A DNA stretch of 35,951 nt from contig JAYUGC010000062.1 in the NCBI GenBank assembly GCA_043767805.1, forward strand, positions 1-35,951, written 5' to 3'. This DNA is from Pseudomonadota bacterium. GTDB lineage: Bacteria > Bdellovibrionota > FAC87 > UBA2466. A program made the position numbers and the translations under genes. The notes beneath the pieces were generated by a model. It did not search any database and was not told the DNA's origin. It saw nothing but the letters and a program-made list of their open reading frames with translations. Shown here piece after piece: positions 22,329 through 27,204 of the stretch; position 1 is the first letter of the stretch, and each line of letters begins with the position of its first letter.

Positions 22329-23357
22329 TTAGCTCACCTTCAGAACAGCCTTTCCAAAGACCCGTCTTGCCTCCAAAGCCTCATGGGCCACCCGCGCCTC
22401 GGAAAGCGGCAGCTCGAGGCCCACGGCGGCCTGTAAACGGCCTTCCCCGAGATGGCCGAGGATGGCCGGGAAGTCTCCCTTGGAGCCCATGGTGGATCCC
22501 AGAAGGGAGAGTTGGCGGAAGAAGATCTGGCGCAGATCGGTCTTGGCCTCAAAGCCGGTGGTCGCGCCGCAGACGACGACTTTGCCGCCCCACCGCGCCG
22601 CTTTCAGATTGCTCTCCCAATGGTCTTTGCCGAGGTGATCGATGACCACGTCGACTCCCTTGCGAGAGATCTTCTTAACGGCGTCGAGGAAGTTCTCCTT
22701 GCGGTAGTTGACGGTGAACTTCGCGCCCAAAGCTTTCGCCGCTTCGCACTTCTCGTCATCACCCGCCGTCGCGATGACGTCCGCGCCGAAGAGGCGGGCG
22801 ATTTGAATCGCCGCGGAGCCGACGCCGCTCCCCGCTGCTTGCACCAAAACCAAATCGCCGGGCTTCACCTCACCGCGGCGCACGACCATCTGCCACGCCG
22901 TCGTAAAAACCAGAGGGACGGAGGCGGCCTCGGCAAAAGAAAGTGAAGCGGGCTTCGCAAAACAATTGGCCGCCGGCACTTTCACGAGCTCCGCATTGGT
23001 GCCATTGGTGGTCTCTCCAAGAATCCCATACTTCGAACAGAGGCTTTCCCACCCCGACAAACACTTCGGACATTTCAAACAGCTGAGACCCGGATGAACG
23101 ACGACTTCGTCTCCTGATTTGAGGTCGGTAACGCCAGCGCCCAACTTATCGACGACGCCCGCCGAGTCGGCACCCAGAATGAACGGATAAACGTACTTCA
23201 TATTGGGAAGCCCACGCCGATTCCAAAGATCGAGATGATTGAGCCCCGAGTAACGAACCCGAACGGTAACTTCACCGGGGCCCGGAGAGACGTCGGGAAG
23301 CTCGCCGAACTCCACCACCTCGGGACCGCCATGACCATTAATGAACGCCGCTTTCAT
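22329..23357 (-). CDS. Zinc-binding alcohol dehydrogenase / quinone oxidoreductase family (MDR)
   Basis: MKAAFINGHGGPEV, LNHLD, ILGAD.AGVV, CLKCPKC...C, AAGSGVGSAAIQ; start ATG 23357. Confidence 0.92.
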   Translation of the reverse strand: MKAAFINGHGGPEVVEFGELPDVSPGPGEVTVRVRYSGLNHLDLWNRRGLPNMKYVYPFILGADSAGVVDKLGAGVTDLKSGDEVVVHPGLSCLKCPKCLSGWESLCSKYGILGETTNGTNAELVKVPAANCFAKPASLSFAEAASVPLVFTTAWQMVVRRGEVKPGDLVLVQAAGSGVGSAAIQIARLFGADVIATAGDDEKCEAAKALGAKFTVNYRKENFLDAVKKISRKGVDVVIDHLGKDHWESNLKAARWGGKVVVCGATTGFEAKTDLRQIFFRQLSLLGSTMGSKGDFPAILGHLGEGRLQAAVGLELPLSEARVAHEALEARRVFGKAVLKVS

Positions 23358-23418
23358 GAAGGCCAGAATACCTGAAGGCAGGGGAATAGGAAGCAGCCGC
23401 ACTCCGGATCTACGGCGT

Positions 23419-23451
23419 TCCCCGGGGAATCCCCGGGGAATCCCCGGGGAA
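23419..23451. repeat. Three perfect tandem copies of the 11-mer tccccggggaa
   Basis: Units at 23419-29, 23430-40 and 23441-51; each has a palindromic ccccgggg core, and the whole 23416-23453 is quasi-palindromic. Confidence 0.95.
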
Positions 23452-23481
23452 CGTGGGGGTGGGTGGGTTACTGGACGCCCT

Positions 23482-23835
23482 TGCCTTCCGACGCTGGGGA
23501 AGTGACCGATGTCCAGCCGGGACAGCGGAATCTCAAGGAGGAGTCCGCGCCAAACGGCCCCCGCTGCCTTTTGTCCCGGCCCGATCTGGCGCCTAACTTA
23601 TTAGAGGGCGCAGCCGCCGCTCCCGTTAGAAGACATATTTAAATTAGGTTTTCGGATCCGGATCCCCCAAACCAAATTTACTCTTATGACAGGAGCGTAA
23701 TTTCGGACTCCGCAACAAGCCGGCCGACAAAGCGGGCCGGCACAAAAAGCACCTCGATCAAGTCGGCTCGAACTTCAAAAGACAAAAAGAGCTGACCATC
23801 CTCGACCCGCGAAACTGCACCAGCGTCGGAAGGCA
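23482..23835 (-). ncRNA. Candidate ~354-nt rod-like structured RNA (degenerate inverted repeat) beside the HNH gene
   Basis: 16-bp perfect terminal IR; 17/19 IR at 23565-83/23733-51; cgctcc/ggagcg, taaatt/aattta and ggttt/aaacc all centred near 23659; transition mismatches favour G-U on the minus strand. Transcription not shown. Confidence 0.55.
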
Positions 23836-24057
23836 CGCGCTCCCTAAATGTCTCGATCATTCCGCTTTTATTCTTGACGCTTTTTTGCGCCGCCGTTCGC
23901 GGGGATAATTTTTGAGATTCAACGTGCGCTAATTTCGCTTTATTTGCCCTCAGACGCCCGCTTCCGAATTAAACGTGGATGCGGTTTGCAATGACTGACG
24001 CCGATCGACTGGGGCCCTTCCTGCTTGGCCGTATTTTCCCATGCTAAAAATATTTTC

Positions 24058-24909
24058 ATGAAAGACCTAAGCCAATTCAGAGACGAAGAAATTCTCACTC
24101 AAACCAAAACGCTCATTGCGACGGAGAGGAAGGCACACGCCGAGTTCTTGATCTATCTCGCGGAAGTAGACGCACGAAAGCTCTATCTCCCCGAGGGCTA
24201 CAGCTCGTTGTTTAGCTTTTGCACGGGGGCTCTCGGACTTTCTGAAGCTTCGGCATCGAAGCGCATTCAACTCGCGCGATGTTCGATTAAGTTCCCAGTC
24301 GTTCTCGGGCATATTGCTCGCAATGAACTGACTCTGAGCAATGCTTCCCTTCTGGCACCCGCTCTGACTCAGGATAATCACGAAGCACTTCTGGGCGCGG
24401 CACTTCATAAGCCGAAACGTACGGTCGAGAAAATGATGGCGACTCGCTTTCCGAAGCCAGATGCGCCTGAGAAGATTAGGCCCCTCAGCGCAACTCGGAC
24501 AAAGTTCGAGTTTTCTGCCGACGATGAAGTCACGGCTCTGTTTCGTACTTTGCAGGATCGGTTGCGGCGCAAATTTCCCGAGGGGCGGATGGAAGACATC
24601 GTCCGCGAGTCGTTCCGGCTCTTGGTCGAGCAGACAAATCCCGCGCGTGAACCTTCTAGGGAAATGACGCCTCGCCCGGTGAAGCACAGGCGTCGTTCCC
24701 CGGCGAATGTGGCTCGGGCGGTGTGGAAGAAAGATGGTGAGCGTTGCACTTTTGTTTCCGCGAGCGGGAGACAATGTGAAGGCACCGCCTTCTTAGAGCT
24801 CGACCACGTCATCCCCTGGAGTCTTGGCGGTAGCTCTCAAGAGGCGGCCAATCTCACCGTTCGTTGCCGAGCCCATAATGCGTGGCGAGGAGGGGCGGTT
24901 AGGGCGTAG
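24058..24909 (+). CDS. HNH endonuclease with a DUF222-like helical N-terminus
   Basis: N-terminal L.EVDARKLYL..GYSSLFSFC...LGLSE..ASKRI; C-terminal VWKKDGERC.F.....RQC....LELDHVIPWSLGG.....NL..RCRAHN (Zn-HNH). Confidence 0.9.
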   Translation: MKDLSQFRDEEILTQTKTLIATERKAHAEFLIYLAEVDARKLYLPEGYSSLFSFCTGALGLSEASASKRIQLARCSIKFPVVLGHIARNELTLSNASLLAPALTQDNHEALLGAALHKPKRTVEKMMATRFPKPDAPEKIRPLSATRTKFEFSADDEVTALFRTLQDRLRRKFPEGRMEDIVRESFRLLVEQTNPAREPSREMTPRPVKHRRRSPANVARAVWKKDGERCTFVSASGRQCEGTAFLELDHVIPWSLGGSSQEAANLTVRCRAHNAWRGGAVRA

Positions 24910-25110
24910 CCAACCTCATTTCGAATCACTCCCTATCCCATAGAATCGATTGCGGTGACGTTTCTCGTCACGCTGCCTACCCAATGAAGCCCTCCCCCAC
25001 CCCATTTAGCCTCAACCCCCCCCGCACACTCCCGGCATCCACCTTGCACACAGAACTGTGCCCAACGAAGGCGAACGTGCGCCCGTGGGACTTAGAAAGG
25101 ATTTGGACCG

Positions 25111-27204
25111 ATGAGGAGATTGCGCATGGCTCTGGAGCTCCTGCTCCAGCGGCAAATGAGCCCAGACGAAGATCTAGGGCTTGCGCTCGACCGCATGGCT
25201 CGCGAGATCAAGGGCACTCTCTTGACCCTCACGACCCTTTTCCTTTTGATCGCGTTCACGTCCTATCTCCCGCTCGATAGCTTGAGCATCTTCCAGGGCC
25301 GTCTTTTGAACGTGAGCAATCTCGCGGGCATCATCGGTGCCTTGGTCAGCGAATGGTTTCTCGGCACGGTAGGTATTACCGGTTATTCCCTCGTCCTTCT
25401 CACGGGCTGGCTTTCCTTTTTCGCATTTCGCGGAAAGCCCCTGAAAGATAGCCTGCTCAAGATTTTGGGCGTCGTCATCTCGACGCTGCTTCTCGCCATC
25501 ACGATTCACCTGATTTTCAAAGACGAGTACCCCGAGGCGAGCCTCCTTCAGGGCGGCTACGTGGGCAAAAGCGCGGGCGAGTTTCTGCAGCGGTATTTCA
25601 ATACGACCGGAGCGCTCCTTCTCGTAGGCGGCGCTTTCCTGGTTACTTTCATTTTGACGACGGGTCTCTCCATGACCCAGGGCGTGCGCTCGCTTCTTGG
25701 CGGCAAGGCCAAGGACGGCGAAGAGGACTGGGAATCGGAAGAAGCCGAGGAAGCTCCCGCTCGCAAAGCCGCACCTAAGGCCAAACTGGCTCCGGTTGCG
25801 AAGAAAGCGGCGCCCAAAACGAAGCCCGCGAAAAAAGCCGTCGTGGAATTCTTGGACGAGGCCGACGACGAGACAGACGAAGACGAAGAGAAAACCGACA
25901 TTCTCGAACTCCCGAAGAAGAGCGCCAAAAAGGCGGCTGTAGCCGACGACGGCGTGGACGAGGAAGAAGAGACCGACGAGGAAGACGCGGGCGAAGACGA
26001 AGGACCGAAAGGATTCCAGGAGCTCATTCAGTACTCGGGCGCCGTCGAGCTTCCCACGACCCGGCTTTTGAAGAGCCACGATAGCGGGGCGAAGAAACAG
26101 AGCGCTTCGGAAATCAAGGCGGGCTCCAGAAAACTTTGCGAGCATTTGCTCTCGTTTCAGATCACCGGCGAAGTGACGGCAGTCACCCAAGGCCCCGTGA
26201 TCACGACGTATGAATTTAAACCAAGCGCCGGTATCAAGCTGAGTAAGATCGCCGCCCTTCAAGACGACTTGGGCATCGTGCTCGGCACGAGCGAGCTCCG
26301 TATCGTCGCGCCCATCCCGGGCAAGACGGTCGTGGGCATCGAAGTGCCTCGCCCTCAGGCCGAGACCATTTCGTTCAAGGATATCGTCAGCTGCGACGAG
26401 TTCTATAACAAGAAGCTTAAATTACCCATCGCCATCGGCAAGAGCACGGACGGCGTTCCGGTGTTCGGCGATTTGGCCGCCATGCCTCACCTGCTCGTCG
26501 CGGGCGGCACGGGTAGCGGTAAATCGGTTTTCATCAATACGATGATCATGAGCTTCCTCTATCGCATGACGCCGCAGCAGCTGCGCCTCATTTTGGTCGA
26601 TCCCAAGATGCTCGAGCTCAATGCTTTCGACGGCATACCGCACCTGGTAACGAACGTCATCACGAAGAGCGAGAAGGCCACCGCCGCCCTCAACTGGGCC
26701 GTGGAAGAGATGGAGCGCCGTTACGATCTGATGGCGCAGACCGGATCCAAGAACATCGAATCTTTCAACGAGAAGATGAAAAACGCGGCAAAGAAGCTTC
26801 CCTTCATCGTCATCGTCGTCGACGAGCTCGCGGACCTCATGATGTCGGGCGACCGCGAATCGGTGGAGATTGCCATCACGCGCCTCGCGCAGAAAGCGCG
26901 CGCCGCCGGCCTTCACCTCGTGATCGCGACCCAGCGTCCGAGCACGGACGTCATCACCGGCTTGATTAAAGCGAACTTGCCCTCTCGTTTGGCGTTCCGG
27001 GTCCCGTCGGGCGTCGACTCTCGGACCGTACTCGATTCCTCGGGCGCGGAAGGCCTCTTGGGCCGCGGCGACGCCTTGATGATTCGTCCGGCCATCCCGA
27101 TGCAGCGCCTGCACGGTTGCTTCGTCTCCGAGGAGGAGCTCGCGCGCGTCGTAAAAAACGTGCGCGGCACGAAGAGCCACAAGGGCATCTACATCGACTT
27201 CTAG
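25111..27204 (+). CDS. ftsK: DNA translocase FtsK/SpoIIIE (4TM + acidic linker + alpha/beta motor), no gamma domain visible
   Basis: GPVITTYEFKP, RIVAPIPGK..VGIEVP, MPHLLVAGGTGSGKS, VDELADLMM, LAQKARAAGLHLVIATQRPS, GAEGLLGRGD. Confidence 0.92.
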   Translation: MRRLRMALELLLQRQMSPDEDLGLALDRMAREIKGTLLTLTTLFLLIAFTSYLPLDSLSIFQGRLLNVSNLAGIIGALVSEWFLGTVGITGYSLVLLTGWLSFFAFRGKPLKDSLLKILGVVISTLLLAITIHLIFKDEYPEASLLQGGYVGKSAGEFLQRYFNTTGALLLVGGAFLVTFILTTGLSMTQGVRSLLGGKAKDGEEDWESEEAEEAPARKAAPKAKLAPVAKKAAPKTKPAKKAVVEFLDEADDETDEDEEKTDILELPKKSAKKAAVADDGVDEEEETDEEDAGEDEGPKGFQELIQYSGAVELPTTRLLKSHDSGAKKQSASEIKAGSRKLCEHLLSFQITGEVTAVTQGPVITTYEFKPSAGIKLSKIAALQDDLGIVLGTSELRIVAPIPGKTVVGIEVPRPQAETISFKDIVSCDEFYNKKLKLPIAIGKSTDGVPVFGDLAAMPHLLVAGGTGSGKSVFINTMIMSFLYRMTPQQLRLILVDPKMLELNAFDGIPHLVTNVITKSEKATAALNWAVEEMERRYDLMAQTGSKNIESFNEKMKNAAKKLPFIVIVVDELADLMMSGDRESVEIAITRLAQKARAAGLHLVIATQRPSTDVITGLIKANLPSRLAFRVPSGVDSRTVLDSSGAEGLLGRGDALMIRPAIPMQRLHGCFVSEEELARVVKNVRGTKSHKGIYIDF

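Follow-up and report, generated by a model that had tools for sequence, protein, structure and literature searches.

The window, a stretch of 35,951 nt from a bacterium of the Bdellovibrionota lineage, carries a lone HNH nuclease gene between a zinc-type alcohol dehydrogenase (ADH) gene and ftsK (25111-27204). FtsK domains were found in the ftsK product by Pfam. The HNH gene is preceded by a long imperfect palindrome, which we call the rod. The features of this locus are collected in Table 1.

Table 1 Features of the rod and HNH gene locus in the window
Feature	Positions	Strand	Basis
Zinc-type alcohol dehydrogenase gene, left neighbour (likely ATG 23353-23355)	22329-23355	-	Pfam ADH_N and ADH_zinc_N; syntenic in the sister species G001
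Left-terminal segment: palindrome CGTTCCCCGGGGAA and start of the threefold tandem TCCCCGGGGAA (23419-23451)	23396-23441	+	Homology, depth, repeats
G-run GTGGGGGTGGGTGGG, G-quadruplex-like as read from the sequence, and spacer left of the rod	23442-23481	+	Conserved in C62, C181 and C126
Rod	23482-23835		Watson-Crick pairing at 111 of 172 aligned positions; z about -5 for either strand
Terminal inverted repeat at the left, TGCCTTCCGACGCTGG; the box in inverted form	23482-23497	+	Sequence and repeat search
Right terminal inverted repeat, the conserved box CCAGCGTCGGAAGGCA	23820-23835	+	Sole strongly conserved block in a 13-sequence module alignment from three genomes
Leader from rod to HNH start; opens with CGCGCTCCC and contains a conserved TTGACGC block	23836-24057	+	Conserved in C62, C67, C102 and C160
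HNH nuclease gene, 283 aa from ATG 24058	24058-24909	+	Pfam HNH, AF2 model, VIA-align
Right unit end, no more than 3 nt from the stop codon	24910-24912	+	End of the homology with C67, C102 and C160; depth single-copy after 24915
Host intergenic DNA, orthologous to the sister species, into ftsK	24945-25110	+	G001 alignment

The initial annotation described the rod as one imperfect palindrome of 354 nt. A repeat search bore this out: the nested inverted repeats I1 (arms 23477-23526 and 23791-23840), I4, I6 and I3 (central ggatccggatcc) share a single axis. The perfect 16-bp terminal inverted repeat was likewise found, the left end tgccttccgacgctgg having its exact reverse complement at the right end. 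When the left arm was aligned globally with the reverse-complemented right arm, the centre fell at rod position 178, and the columns comprised 111 Watson-Crick pairs, 4 G:T, 15 A:C, 42 other mismatches and 10 gaps. An A:C mismatch is a G:U pair on the minus strand, and these numbers confirm the asymmetry of about 15 against about 4-5 that had been counted by hand. The rod was also said to be free of ORFs; this holds loosely, as mechanical ORFs of 59 and 58 aa overlap it.

To compare the fold with shuffled controls, as had been suggested, the region 23470-23850 and 100 dinucleotide shuffles per strand were folded. The plus strand gave -152.4 kcal/mol against -118.9 ± 6.3 for the shuffles (z -5.4), and the minus strand gave -173.1 kcal/mol against -145.0 ± 5.6 (z -5.1). 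None of the 100 shuffles was as good on either strand. Because the z-scores are alike on both strands, the lower folding energy of the minus strand is compositional.

The HNH ORF occupies 24025-24909 on the plus strand. Its likely ATG lies 222 nt past the rod end, in agreement with the earlier estimate of about 220 nt. The two had been called divergent; the gene is plainly downstream of the rod on the plus strand, and there was no sign of divergent transcription. No sigma-70-type promoter met the scan criteria in the leader or rod of the window, in L134 or in L021. Against the Pfam HNH profile, the window protein scored 18.6-18.7 bits, below the cutoff of 21.4, and the profile matched 7/7 paralogues (best E 3.1e-7). 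In an AF2 model (mean pLDDT 90.3) compared by VIA-align, residues 22-132 resemble the DNA-binding domains of ParB, KorB and Spo0J (Z 6.0-7.2), residues 146-201 resemble ribbon-helix-helix proteins (Z 4.3-5.0) and residues 206-283 resemble the HNH domains of McrA and IscB (Z 6-7.2; IscB 5.9-6.7), where the N-terminal matches are middling (Z 4.3-7.2) and the program warns that Z < 8 may mean a common arrangement only. A Foldseek search of the PDB gave no match at E <= 0.001; the domain assignments rest on VIA-align. As modelled, the product looks like a sequence-specific DNA-binding nuclease with a ParB/KorB-like HTH domain, a ribbon-helix-helix-like segment and an HNH domain.

The statement that this protein is not IscB holds: the NCBIfam guided_IscB profile gave 18.5 bits against a cutoff of 175 and covered residues 219-274 of the HNH domain only. 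The unit also lacks an HUH protein, as had been stated. In contrast, the label "DUF222-like" was not supported, since PF02720 was found in only one of the seven paralogues (E 0.19) and in none of the 120 listed homologues according to precomputed Pfam assignments. The HNH family is highly expanded, being present in 24 of 34 family genomes. The closest paralogues of the window protein (52-54% identity) have no rod.

The rod, the 222-nt leader and the HNH gene form one repeat unit of about 1.5 kb (about 23396-24912). When 23000-25400 was compared with the genome by blastn, homology extended over 23442-24913, and at least three intact and three internally deleted copies were found. The intact copies are C62, C67 (1-1307, 88%; its left arm is at the end of C181) and C102 (89%). 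The deleted copies are C126 (23442-23689 joined to 24541-24689), C160 and C189. In the assembled contigs of four DNA runs, from which all depth and joint data come, the summed depth of metagenome contigs climbs from 7.5 to 25-54 over 23404-24915, and the joints of the known deletions recur. Divergence is similar for the rod and the HNH gene, rod halves being 85-93% and whole units 88-89% identical. Thus, the copies, the joint homology and the contig depth support the earlier proposal that the rod and the HNH gene belong to one selfish, multicopy unit.

The left edge of the unit was placed near 23396, where homology with the left flank of C135 begins; depth steps up in the 23404-23487 bin. Palindromes are present at this end; at the right end, by the stop codon, no hairpin is obvious. 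For the unit of this genome, no target duplication, convincing terminal inverted repeats or vehicle transposase was found. The sequence CTACGGCG near the left end resembles the reverse complement of the right end; the similarity is weak and we judged it unconvincing as a terminal repeat. In C181 and C126, an IS is inserted inside the CCCCGGGG palindrome of the left-terminal segment. Similar G-runs precede the left inverted repeat in C26, C126:2131, C193 and G001 L134-L137, and in the paralogues without a rod (C57, C182 and C168) the leaders open with CGYGCTCCC-like motifs.

The 16-nt motif of the left end has 16 matches in the genome with up to two mismatches, most of them at rod ends. A second rod type (C26:71-430) has 16-nt ends identical to those of the window rod and shows no wobble asymmetry (15 versus 13). 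In C86 and C151, half rods lead into a Y1 gene leader. Rod centres are interrupted by the ends of other ISs in C160 and C151, and the deletion in C126 begins in the rod centre. By eye, local hairpins within the arms vary yet keep pairing (CCGC...GCGG in C62, CCTCA...TGAGG in C67 and C102).

We then considered the family, 34 genomes that include a sister species (G001) and a member of another genus, g5 (G005). A blastn search of the rod and leader against 40 relatives gave no match, and related modules emerged only via the 15-nt motif. Their conserved core is a box of 15-18 nt, CACCAGCGTCGGAAGG(C/T)A, located 200-450 nt upstream of an HNH gene. Among the 34 family genomes, more than three matches to the box 15-mer (at most one mismatch) were present only in G000 (14), G001 (8) and G005 (9). 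Each of the nine G005 matches is followed at 200-450 nt by an HNH homologue that has the same orientation. In G001, there are three inverted-repeat pairs 310 nt apart, of which two are followed by HNH genes and one by an HNH remnant. The box-bearing HNH proteins are merely 23-35% identical between subfamilies. Apart from the box, the 13-sequence alignment shows conservation solely in a short ATCCGAA block.

The claim that the rod is a conserved structure under selection is not sustained by these homologues. The G001 modules share the bounding inverted repeats but their interiors are not palindromic: self-to-reverse-complement identity is 0.48-0.52, against 0.60 for the window rod, and rod-type pairs number 17-50 of 85-105, against 70-103 of 116-126 in this genome (the z-scores of this comparison, from 25 mononucleotide shuffles, are rougher than those of the window folds). 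The G005 modules have a single box without an inverted partner. Because this homologous DNA carries one box, the two-ended form with inverted repeats is derived. Upstream of 20 distant HNH-homologue loci (23-40% identity), a crude self-blast, which does pick up the window rod, detected no long inverted repeats except for a 23-nt pair in L036. In metagenomes, none of 30 matches to the 18-mer box was beside an HNH or Y1 gene, and we treated them as chance occurrences; therefore, the module is known from three genomes of one family. Likewise, the single-mismatch motif was found at 11 loci in seven other family genomes, none of them beside an HNH or Y1 gene.

We regard the rod as the palindromised state of non-coding cis DNA, a 5′ module that accompanies selfish nuclease genes within this Bdellovibrionota family, and give this reading a little less than an even chance. 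Under a different reading, the rod is a structured RNA, either a minus-strand antisense or antitoxin RNA or a plus-strand omega-RNA-like partner, which acts with the HNH protein. Consistent with this, both strands fold strongly and the 15 A:C mismatches, against 4 G:T, would pair as G:U on the minus strand. Moreover, in IscB elements a long conserved non-coding region precedes the nuclease gene, as a long conserved non-coding stretch does here, and the IscB HNH domains are among the nearest structural neighbours of the HNH domain. However, the homologues keep the box and not the rod, and the z-scores do not distinguish the strands. The asymmetry, which had been taken as a mark of selection on a minus-strand structure, is absent from the second rod type and is matched by strand composition: A+C makes up 64.6% of the right arm of the window rod and 62.6-65.8% of the homologous G005 module, which is not palindromic. 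Thus, the 15 A:C against 4 G:T are explained by an A+C-rich strand, whose composition is common to non-palindromic homologues.

Covariation, a further sign that had been looked to, was not seen among the copies. The cognate C62 arms formed 78 Watson-Crick pairs, against 71-83 in 11 non-cognate combinations (three left and four right arms; the true partner is known for C62 only). In 22800-25400, Rfam cmscan at E <= 1 gave only a chance mir-145 match on the palindrome next to the rod (23416-23453, 18.4 bits against 50) and no HEARO; five related loci gave no Rfam match at E <= 0.1. The protein, moreover, has a ParB/KorB-like DNA-binding domain and no RuvC, and its IscB match is limited to the HNH domain. 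The initial annotation had named rod-less HNH homologues, rods independent of HNH genes and a housekeeping RNA in Rfam as findings that would speak against an RNA-associated element. The closest paralogues are indeed rod-less, and identical rod ends also precede a Y1 gene; no known housekeeping RNA was found in Rfam. The rod does not constitute an RNA gene of its own and is unlikely to act as an RNA guide, and the RNA reading as a whole is decidedly improbable. Since folding exceeds chance and most copies have perfect 16-nt ends, pairing of the ends, as DNA or RNA, may be under some selection. As a caution, a 354-nt rod with strand-asymmetric wobbles can come from inverted duplication and skewed composition, without a conserved RNA.

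Several observations suggest that the rod might instead be an independent foldback or MITE-type element with 16-62-nt inverted repeats, inserting either way round at a preferred site in HNH and Y1 leaders and later amplified together with them. In G001, the rod of L135 and the reverse complement of the L134 rod are 93-96% identical, and the adjacent HNH remnant is only 85% identical; from these values, the two rods share more recent ancestry than the neighbouring genes. HNH and Y1 genes, although unrelated, both have these ends next to them. Three of ten Y1 genes in G013 are preceded by a 208-nt element whose inverted repeats are 27 nt long and perfect. The outer 10-nt flanks of this element vary from copy to copy but are themselves inverted repeats, as if the element had inserted into palindrome centres; other ISs in the present genome do insert into palindrome centres. 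Features of a MITE are present in that there are terminal inverted repeats of small elements (16 bp, perfect, and 354 nt here; 45-62 nt and 310 nt in G001). In contrast, among the rods of this genome and G001, neither flanking target duplications nor solo copies at unrelated sites were found: each rod or half rod examined adjoins an HNH or Y1 gene, a remnant or a contig end. Furthermore, the two-ended form is derived, as the single-box G005 DNA indicates, and rods and whole units diverge alike in this genome. We consider this explanation unlikely.

The same G001 pair bears on the idea of an inverton, in which the inverted repeats would bound an invertible segment that switches expression of the downstream nuclease gene on and off. 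The interior between the 45-62-nt repeats is inverted in L135 relative to L134 while the outer flanks and the HNH remnant are not, and the L135 repeats (45 nt) are perfect. An "opposite strands" joint from 23497 to 23697 was also seen in one contig in each of three runs of one study; however, this joint derives from contigs and its shorter side spans only 31 nt, and we did not rely on it. L135 is the single inverted case found. In the present genome, 4/4 C62-type and 3/3 C26-type right arms are oriented alike relative to the gene. No promoter-like site lies inside the rod, and no recombinase gene was noticed beside any copy, although the search was not systematic. An inverton is thus very improbable.

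The Y1 genes raise a further reading, in which the cassette is of IS200/IS605 type, the box or rod is a single-stranded DNA hairpin end for the Y1 (HUH) transposase of sister units, and the HNH gene occupies the TnpB/IscB slot. The identical 16-nt end and a similar leader precede the C86 Y1 gene, and Pfam Y1_Tnp matched the C86 and G001 proteins with 23.4 and 25.9 bits (cutoff 23). The Y1 units are IS200-sized (inter-copy homology 530-810 nt) and are multicopy in 20 of 33 other family genomes. An 11-bp palindrome, TATCGNCGATA, is found in 18 of 30 Y1 leaders, where about 0.13 would be expected per 400 nt, and also in the HNH leaders of G005 and G001. As in IS200/IS605 elements, the unit of this genome shows no target duplication or terminal inverted repeats. 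Moreover, the site between ADH and ftsK holds a Y1 unit in the sister species and the rod-HNH unit here.

Against this reading, only one intact rod-linked Y1 gene (C86) is present in this genome, the others being truncated. No right end common to HNH and Y1 units could be defined, three left flanks differ without a conserved target tetranucleotide, and TATCGNCGATA is missing from the C62-type leader. The Y1 proteins are far under the equivalog cutoffs (IS200, 22.4 against 55; RAYT, 23.1 against 80), and the G005 cassette demonstrably moves with ISL3 ends instead. Therefore, we hold an IS200/IS605-type cassette to be quite unlikely. A bolder form of the idea is that the HNH cassettes are a new passenger class of IS200/IS605 (Y1 HUH) elements, with the box or rod as a single-stranded DNA hairpin end or cis-RNA scaffold. 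In that case, TnpB/IscB would have a protein-guided counterpart in the ParB-HTH/HNH protein, which would cut emptied or naive sites and thereby keep or spread the element. Taken as a whole, this proposal is quite unlikely; if true, it would explain the multiplication of lone REP13E12-type HNH genes.

A clear case of movement was found in G005. Its unit of 1.87 kb is present in seven copies of 94-98% identity, and flanking direct repeats of at least 8 bp (8-bp target duplications) were found in 7/7 copies. Four of the seven have internal deletions with both ends kept. These ends also flank an eighth copy, which encodes a DDE_Tnp_ISL3 transposase (150.4 bits) and is the autonomous partner. Thus, in genus g5 the HNH cassette travels as a passenger between ISL3 ends.

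Returning to the palindromised cis-DNA module, we propose the following course. The functional unit would be a cassette of about 1.5 kb, composed of the left palindrome and G-run, the rod, the leader and the HNH gene. Box-proximal DNA may have been duplicated in inverted orientation in this genus, giving inverted repeats of 16-62 nt around about 300 nt. In the lineage of the window, the inverted duplication would have covered the whole arm and since decayed to about 65% pairing. The module probably acts as cis DNA, combining a putative protein-recognition site with a leader or regulatory region for the nuclease gene, and may also be a site for copying or capture of the cassette. The long hairpin could be a by-product that destabilises the locus. 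The cassette would spread as a passenger, for which the ISL3 ends serve as the vehicle in g5.

Multicopy lone HNH nuclease genes are common, and the 13E12 repeats of mycobacteria are the textbook case. To our knowledge, the mode of spread of REP13E12 has not been described, and our literature search found no account of how multicopy lone HNH genes spread. The present family offers three handles on this problem. First, a non-coding module with an invariant 15-18-nt box stands beside HNH genes that are 23-35% identical. Second, the same module precedes IS200-like Y1 transposase genes. Third, G005 provides a clean example in which ISL3 ends flank an HNH cassette that has been amplified. With these three handles, the spread of lone HNH genes becomes testable by simple binding, cleavage and transposition assays.

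The unit can be compared with several known systems. Like an inverton, it has a segment of about 300 nt between inverted repeats directly upstream of a gene, with one inverted instance in G001; it differs in that neither a promoter nor an invertase was identified, and in this genome every copy keeps a fixed orientation. Like IS200/IS605 elements, including IscB/HEARO and the HNH-only IshB, it has a small nuclease gene after a long conserved non-coding region, hairpin-forming ends and no visible target duplication, and its sister units encode a Y1 HUH transposase. In contrast to IscB/HEARO, the window protein has neither RuvC nor PLMP, its N-terminal domain is ParB/KorB-like, and there is no HEARO or other Rfam match; the unit itself carries no Y1 gene, and its 354-nt hairpin is not conserved. 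REPINs and RAYTs (REPtrons) resemble it in forming long hairpins from inverted doublets and in their association with a Y1 HUH gene. However, there are a handful of copies here instead of hundreds, the arms are about 170 nt instead of about 20-40, the Y1 genes occur in multiple, divergent copies, and the rods go with a gene instead of being dispersed. The REP_Tyr_transpos profile gave 17.6 and 23.1 bits for the Y1 proteins (cutoff 80). Transposase-less ISL3 derivatives that carry passengers and are mobilised in trans match the G005 cassette in ends, duplications, deletions and an autonomous copy; for the window unit, no such ends, duplications or partner transposase were found.

The REP13E12 elements (13E12 repeats; DUF222-HNH) are multicopy dispersed repeats of about 1.3-1.5 kb in Mycobacterium and other Actinomycetota, with decayed or deleted copies, and their sole gene encodes a helical N-terminal region and a C-terminal HNH domain. 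The window unit is also a multicopy repeat of about 1.5 kb with a lone C-terminal-HNH gene and deleted copies. REP13E12 is named as a repetitive element in a published article (PMC10589994). The window family differs in lacking Pfam DUF222 and in belonging to another phylum. Furthermore, its gene has a defined upstream module, composed of the box, the inverted repeats and the rod, which it has in common with Y1 genes.

The left end of the 354-nt imperfect palindrome upstream of the HNH gene (hereafter, the rod) reads tgccttccgacgctgg (23482-23497), and its exact reverse complement lies at 23820-23835. A repeat search placed the inverted repeats I1, I4, I6 and I3 in nested order around a single axis. 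When the left arm was globally aligned to the reverse-complemented right arm, we obtained 111 Watson-Crick, 4 G:T and 15 A:C columns, 42 other mismatches and 10 gap columns; the hand counts of the initial annotation (~15 mismatches becoming G-U pairs on the minus strand against ~4-5 on the plus strand) were therefore correct. The region 23470-23850 was predicted to fold at -152.4 kcal/mol on the plus strand (z -5.4) and at -173.1 kcal/mol on the minus strand (z -5.1), and 0 of 100 dinucleotide shuffles was as stable in either case. Because the z-scores are equal on both strands, the lower energy of the minus strand reflects composition.

The same asymmetry had been taken as the mark of a selected minus-strand structure, and this interpretation was not supported. 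We combined the left arms of three copies (C62, which is the window's own contig, C181 and C126) with the right arms of four (C62, C67, C102 and C160), the cognate partner being known for one pair. All combinations gave 71-83 Watson-Crick columns and the cognate pair gave 78. The differences between copies are therefore not compensatory. A:C columns were in excess in all 12 combinations (7-13 vs 1-5). The A+C content is 64.6% in the right arm and 50.9% in the left arm, where a perfect palindrome would need 35.4%, and it is 62.6-65.8% in the homologous, non-palindromic module of G005, a genome from another genus of the same family. The A:C excess thus matches base composition. Rfam returned only a chance miRNA match on a neighbouring palindrome and nothing at five related loci, and no sigma-70-type promoter meeting the scan criteria was found. 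A cis-encoded RNA nevertheless keeps some probability. By eye, one variable segment of the right arm retains local hairpin potential with sequences that differ between C62 and C67/C102, which counts against our main reading of the hairpin as a by-product.

The rod belongs to a cassette that is present in multiple copies. In the organism's own assembly (204 contigs), the rod was matched in part at five further sites, several of them at contig ends. With 23000-25400 as the query, homology spanned 23442-24913; on C135 the match begins further left, at 23396. The right end is visible in four copies, and in each it coincides with the HNH stop codon. Summed contig depth in three runs of a single sediment metagenome study was ~7.5 on both flanks vs 25-54 across 23404-24915, and the deletion joints of the copies recur in contigs of these runs; because the runs may include the source sample, they are no independent support. 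By tblastn, the genome encodes three HNH genes of 93-100% identity, three paralogues of 52-54% (C2, C57 and C182), one of 28% (C168) and several fragments. In the paralogues of 52-54%, the leader is related and starts CGTGCTCCC, and there is no rod.

Coordinates of the cassette, its copies, associated sites and protein domains (C, contigs of the window's genome; L, loci in relatives)
Feature	Position	Detail
Inverted repeat I1 (repeat search)		50-nt arms, 70% complementary
Inverted repeat I4 (repeat search)		16 nt, 81%
Inverted repeat I6 (repeat search)		12 nt, 92%
Inverted repeat I3 (repeat search)		central palindrome ggatccggatcc
HNH ORF	24025-24909	likely start ATG 24058
Neighbours of cassette		zinc-type alcohol dehydrogenase (minus strand); ftsK
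Copy	C67:1-1307	88%; left half = end of C181 (93%)
Copy	C102:4565-3259	89%
Internally deleted copy	C126	23442-23689 joined to 24541-24689
Internally deleted copy	C160	23684-23979 joined to 24796-24903
Internally deleted copy	C189	24047-24075 joined to 24532-24687
CGTTCCCCGGGGAACG/IS loci	C181:20780-20860; C126:27040-27126; C170:21680-21790; C69:1-100; C123:6050-6150; C135:1-120	
G-triplet runs	window 23453-23470; C26:20-45; left flanks of G001 L134-L137	
HNH protein, residues 22-132		DNA-binding domains of ParB, KorB, Spo0J; Z 6.0-7.2 (VIA-align)
HNH protein, residues 146-201		ribbon-helix-helix proteins; Z 4.3-5.0 (VIA-align)
HNH protein, residues 206-283		McrA, phage and IscB HNH domains; Z 6-7.2 (VIA-align)

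In relatives, the box (the conserved motif that also forms the right end of the rod) is kept and the rod is not. Blastn with rod and leader against 40 relatives gave no match. We searched 34 family genomes with the 15-nt end motif, allowing at most one mismatch, and obtained 14 matches in the window's genome (G000), 8 in G001 (a sister species in its genus), 9 in G005 and 1-3 in each of seven others; in these seven, none of 11 examined loci adjoins an HNH or Y1 homologue. In G005, each of the nine matches precedes a co-oriented HNH homologue by 200-450 nt, and none has an inverted partner. G001 has three motif pairs 310 nt apart; an HNH gene comes after two of them and a 108-nt HNH remnant after the third. 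Their interiors are non-palindromic: identity to the own reverse complement is 0.48-0.52 vs 0.60 for the window's rod, and rod-type predicted pairs number 17-50 of 85-105 vs 70-103 of 116-126 (25 mononucleotide shuffles). Homology to the left arm of the window's rod can be recognised in the left half of the G001 elements but not in the right half; therefore, the rod looks like a secondary inverted duplication. Across 13 aligned modules from three genomes, conservation is confined to the box CACCAGCGTCGGAAGG and a short ATCCGAA block, and the HNH proteins that carry the box form four subfamilies with only 23-35% mutual identity.

In G001, element L135 is flipped with respect to its own flanks and HNH remnant; it matches the reverse complement of L134 at 93-96% identity, and its inverted repeats are perfect over 45 nt. 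That the rod is an inverton retains a share of the probability. Directly to the left of the left inverted repeat there are always runs of G-triplets (G-quadruplex-type), which lie on the same strand as the downstream gene. At G005 locus L143 (oriented), a 57-nt direct repeat of 88% identity (1806-1861 / 2137-2192) flanks the box up- and downstream.

Besides divergent HNH genes, Y1 transposase genes are also preceded by the rod ends and parts of the rod sequence. The rod-end 16-mer occurs 16 times in G000 (at most two mismatches). A second rod at C26:71-430 has identical ends and a different interior (108 Watson-Crick, 15 G:T and 13 A:C columns), and half rods of this type are present at C86 and C151. 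About 90 nt after the C86 rod, an ORF scores 23.4 bits against the Pfam Y1_Tnp cutoff of 23 and passes; at C26 and C151 the Y1 gene is reduced to its first ~50 nt, and at C193 and C51 the left rod end is fused to Y1 genes truncated at the 5' end. Among the 33 other genomes of the taxonomic family, 20 carry the Y1 family in multiple copies; its units are IS200-sized and homology between copies extends over 530-810 nt. We still assign some probability to the rod being an IS200/IS605-type end on which the Y1 protein acts. An 11-bp perfect palindrome, TATCGNCGATA, was found in 18 of 30 Y1 leaders family-wide, where ~0.13 occurrences per 400 nt would be expected. It stands 40-130 nt before many Y1 genes and some HNH genes; it occurs in HNH leaders of G005 (L139/L140) and G001 (L134) and is absent from the window's leader. 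It looks like a shared operator or recognition site. In G013, a further genome, 3 of 10 Y1 genes have upstream of them an element of ~208 nt whose terminal inverted repeats are perfect over 27 nt (L081:1032-1239, L106, L098). Its outer 10-nt flanks are copy-specific, yet inverted repeats of each other, which looks like insertion into the centres of pre-existing palindromes or a mechanism creating inverted flank duplications.

The alcohol dehydrogenase (ADH) and ftsK genes are syntenic in G001, and orthologous DNA resumes at about 24945. No empty allele was seen in the sister species. The G001 interval holds a Y1_Tnp gene (minus strand), its leader and long C-runs, and the two species thus have different selfish cassettes at one and the same intergenic site. 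At this locus (L067, G001:C18, 2522-3100), Y1_Tnp lies directly upstream of ADH on the same strand, its TGA stop overlapping the ADH ATG (ATGA), as if the two were translationally coupled; a run of N stands beside the long C-runs on the ftsK side.

At the left edge of the cassette, the palindrome CGTTCCCCGGGGAACG (23416-23453) is an insertion hot spot of a different IS with ends starting CTCATCATTGATCACTTATCGC. The palindrome in C181 holds two IS ends back to back, and the flanking CCCCGGGG / CCCTGGGG resemble an 8-bp duplication. At the corresponding position the window carries a threefold tandem of TCCCCGGGGAA, which may be an IS footprint. The centres of a C26-type rod (C151:24453-24538) and a C62-type rod (C160:9579-9674) are broken by one foreign IS end containing GGCGGGACCCCTTGCGGGGCCCGCC, which suggests that this IS targets the centres of these palindromes.

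The HNH protein has 398 homologues at E <=1e-5, and the named ones are HNH or McrA-like. Among the 120 homologues listed, the precomputed Pfam domains are PF01844, a few PF14279 or PF07499, or none; DUF222 was not among them, and it matched one of seven paralogues at E 0.19. A profile search of PDB sequences gave HNH domains only. The AlphaFold2 model (49-sequence alignment, mean pLDDT 90.3) gave nothing at E <=0.001 in Foldseek. It was also compared with 48,161 chains by VIA-align; because the Z values are middling, the resulting domain calls are leads, and they are more consistent with protein-guided, sequence-specific cleavage than with RNA guidance. Within this bacterial family the HNH family has undergone strong expansion: 24 of 34 genomes gave matches, many per genome and up to ~48 half-gene matches in a single one, whereas in genus g7 no match was found in five of five genomes. 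Many of these genomes also carry the Y1 family in multiple copies.

We propose that the module is cis DNA, a putative recognition site plus leader, and that the box-proximal leader was duplicated in inverted orientation to give the rod. The hairpin would then be a by-product that attracts IS insertions (C151, C160) and deletions (C126). Against this reading, the 16-nt rod ends are perfect in most copies. A target-specific foldback element also keeps some probability.

How such cassettes may spread is illustrated by G005, which has seven copies (94-98% identical) of a 1.87-kb HNH unit. The unit ends are imperfect inverted repeats starting GGGTTCTTTC; direct repeats of at least 8 bp flank all seven, reaching 14 nt at L147, and four have internal deletions with both ends retained. 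An eighth copy, with the 29-nt left end and the final ~320 nt in common, carries the gene for a DDE_Tnp_ISL3 transposase of 428 aa (L154:96-1382, minus strand; 150.4 bits); it is an autonomous ISL3-family IS. The right part common to the copies is the 3' end of its transposase gene. In G005, most of the ISL3 transposase gene has given way to the HNH cassette, which spreads between ISL3 ends as a passenger. For the window's unit, comparable ends, target duplications or a partner transposase were sought and not found. In the available excerpt of PMC10589994, REP13E12/HNH/DUF222 is listed among repetitive elements, and the available excerpts on DUF222-HNH repeats and REP13E12 describe no mechanism of spread; the ISL3 passenger of G005 represents one way in which such HNH cassettes can multiply.
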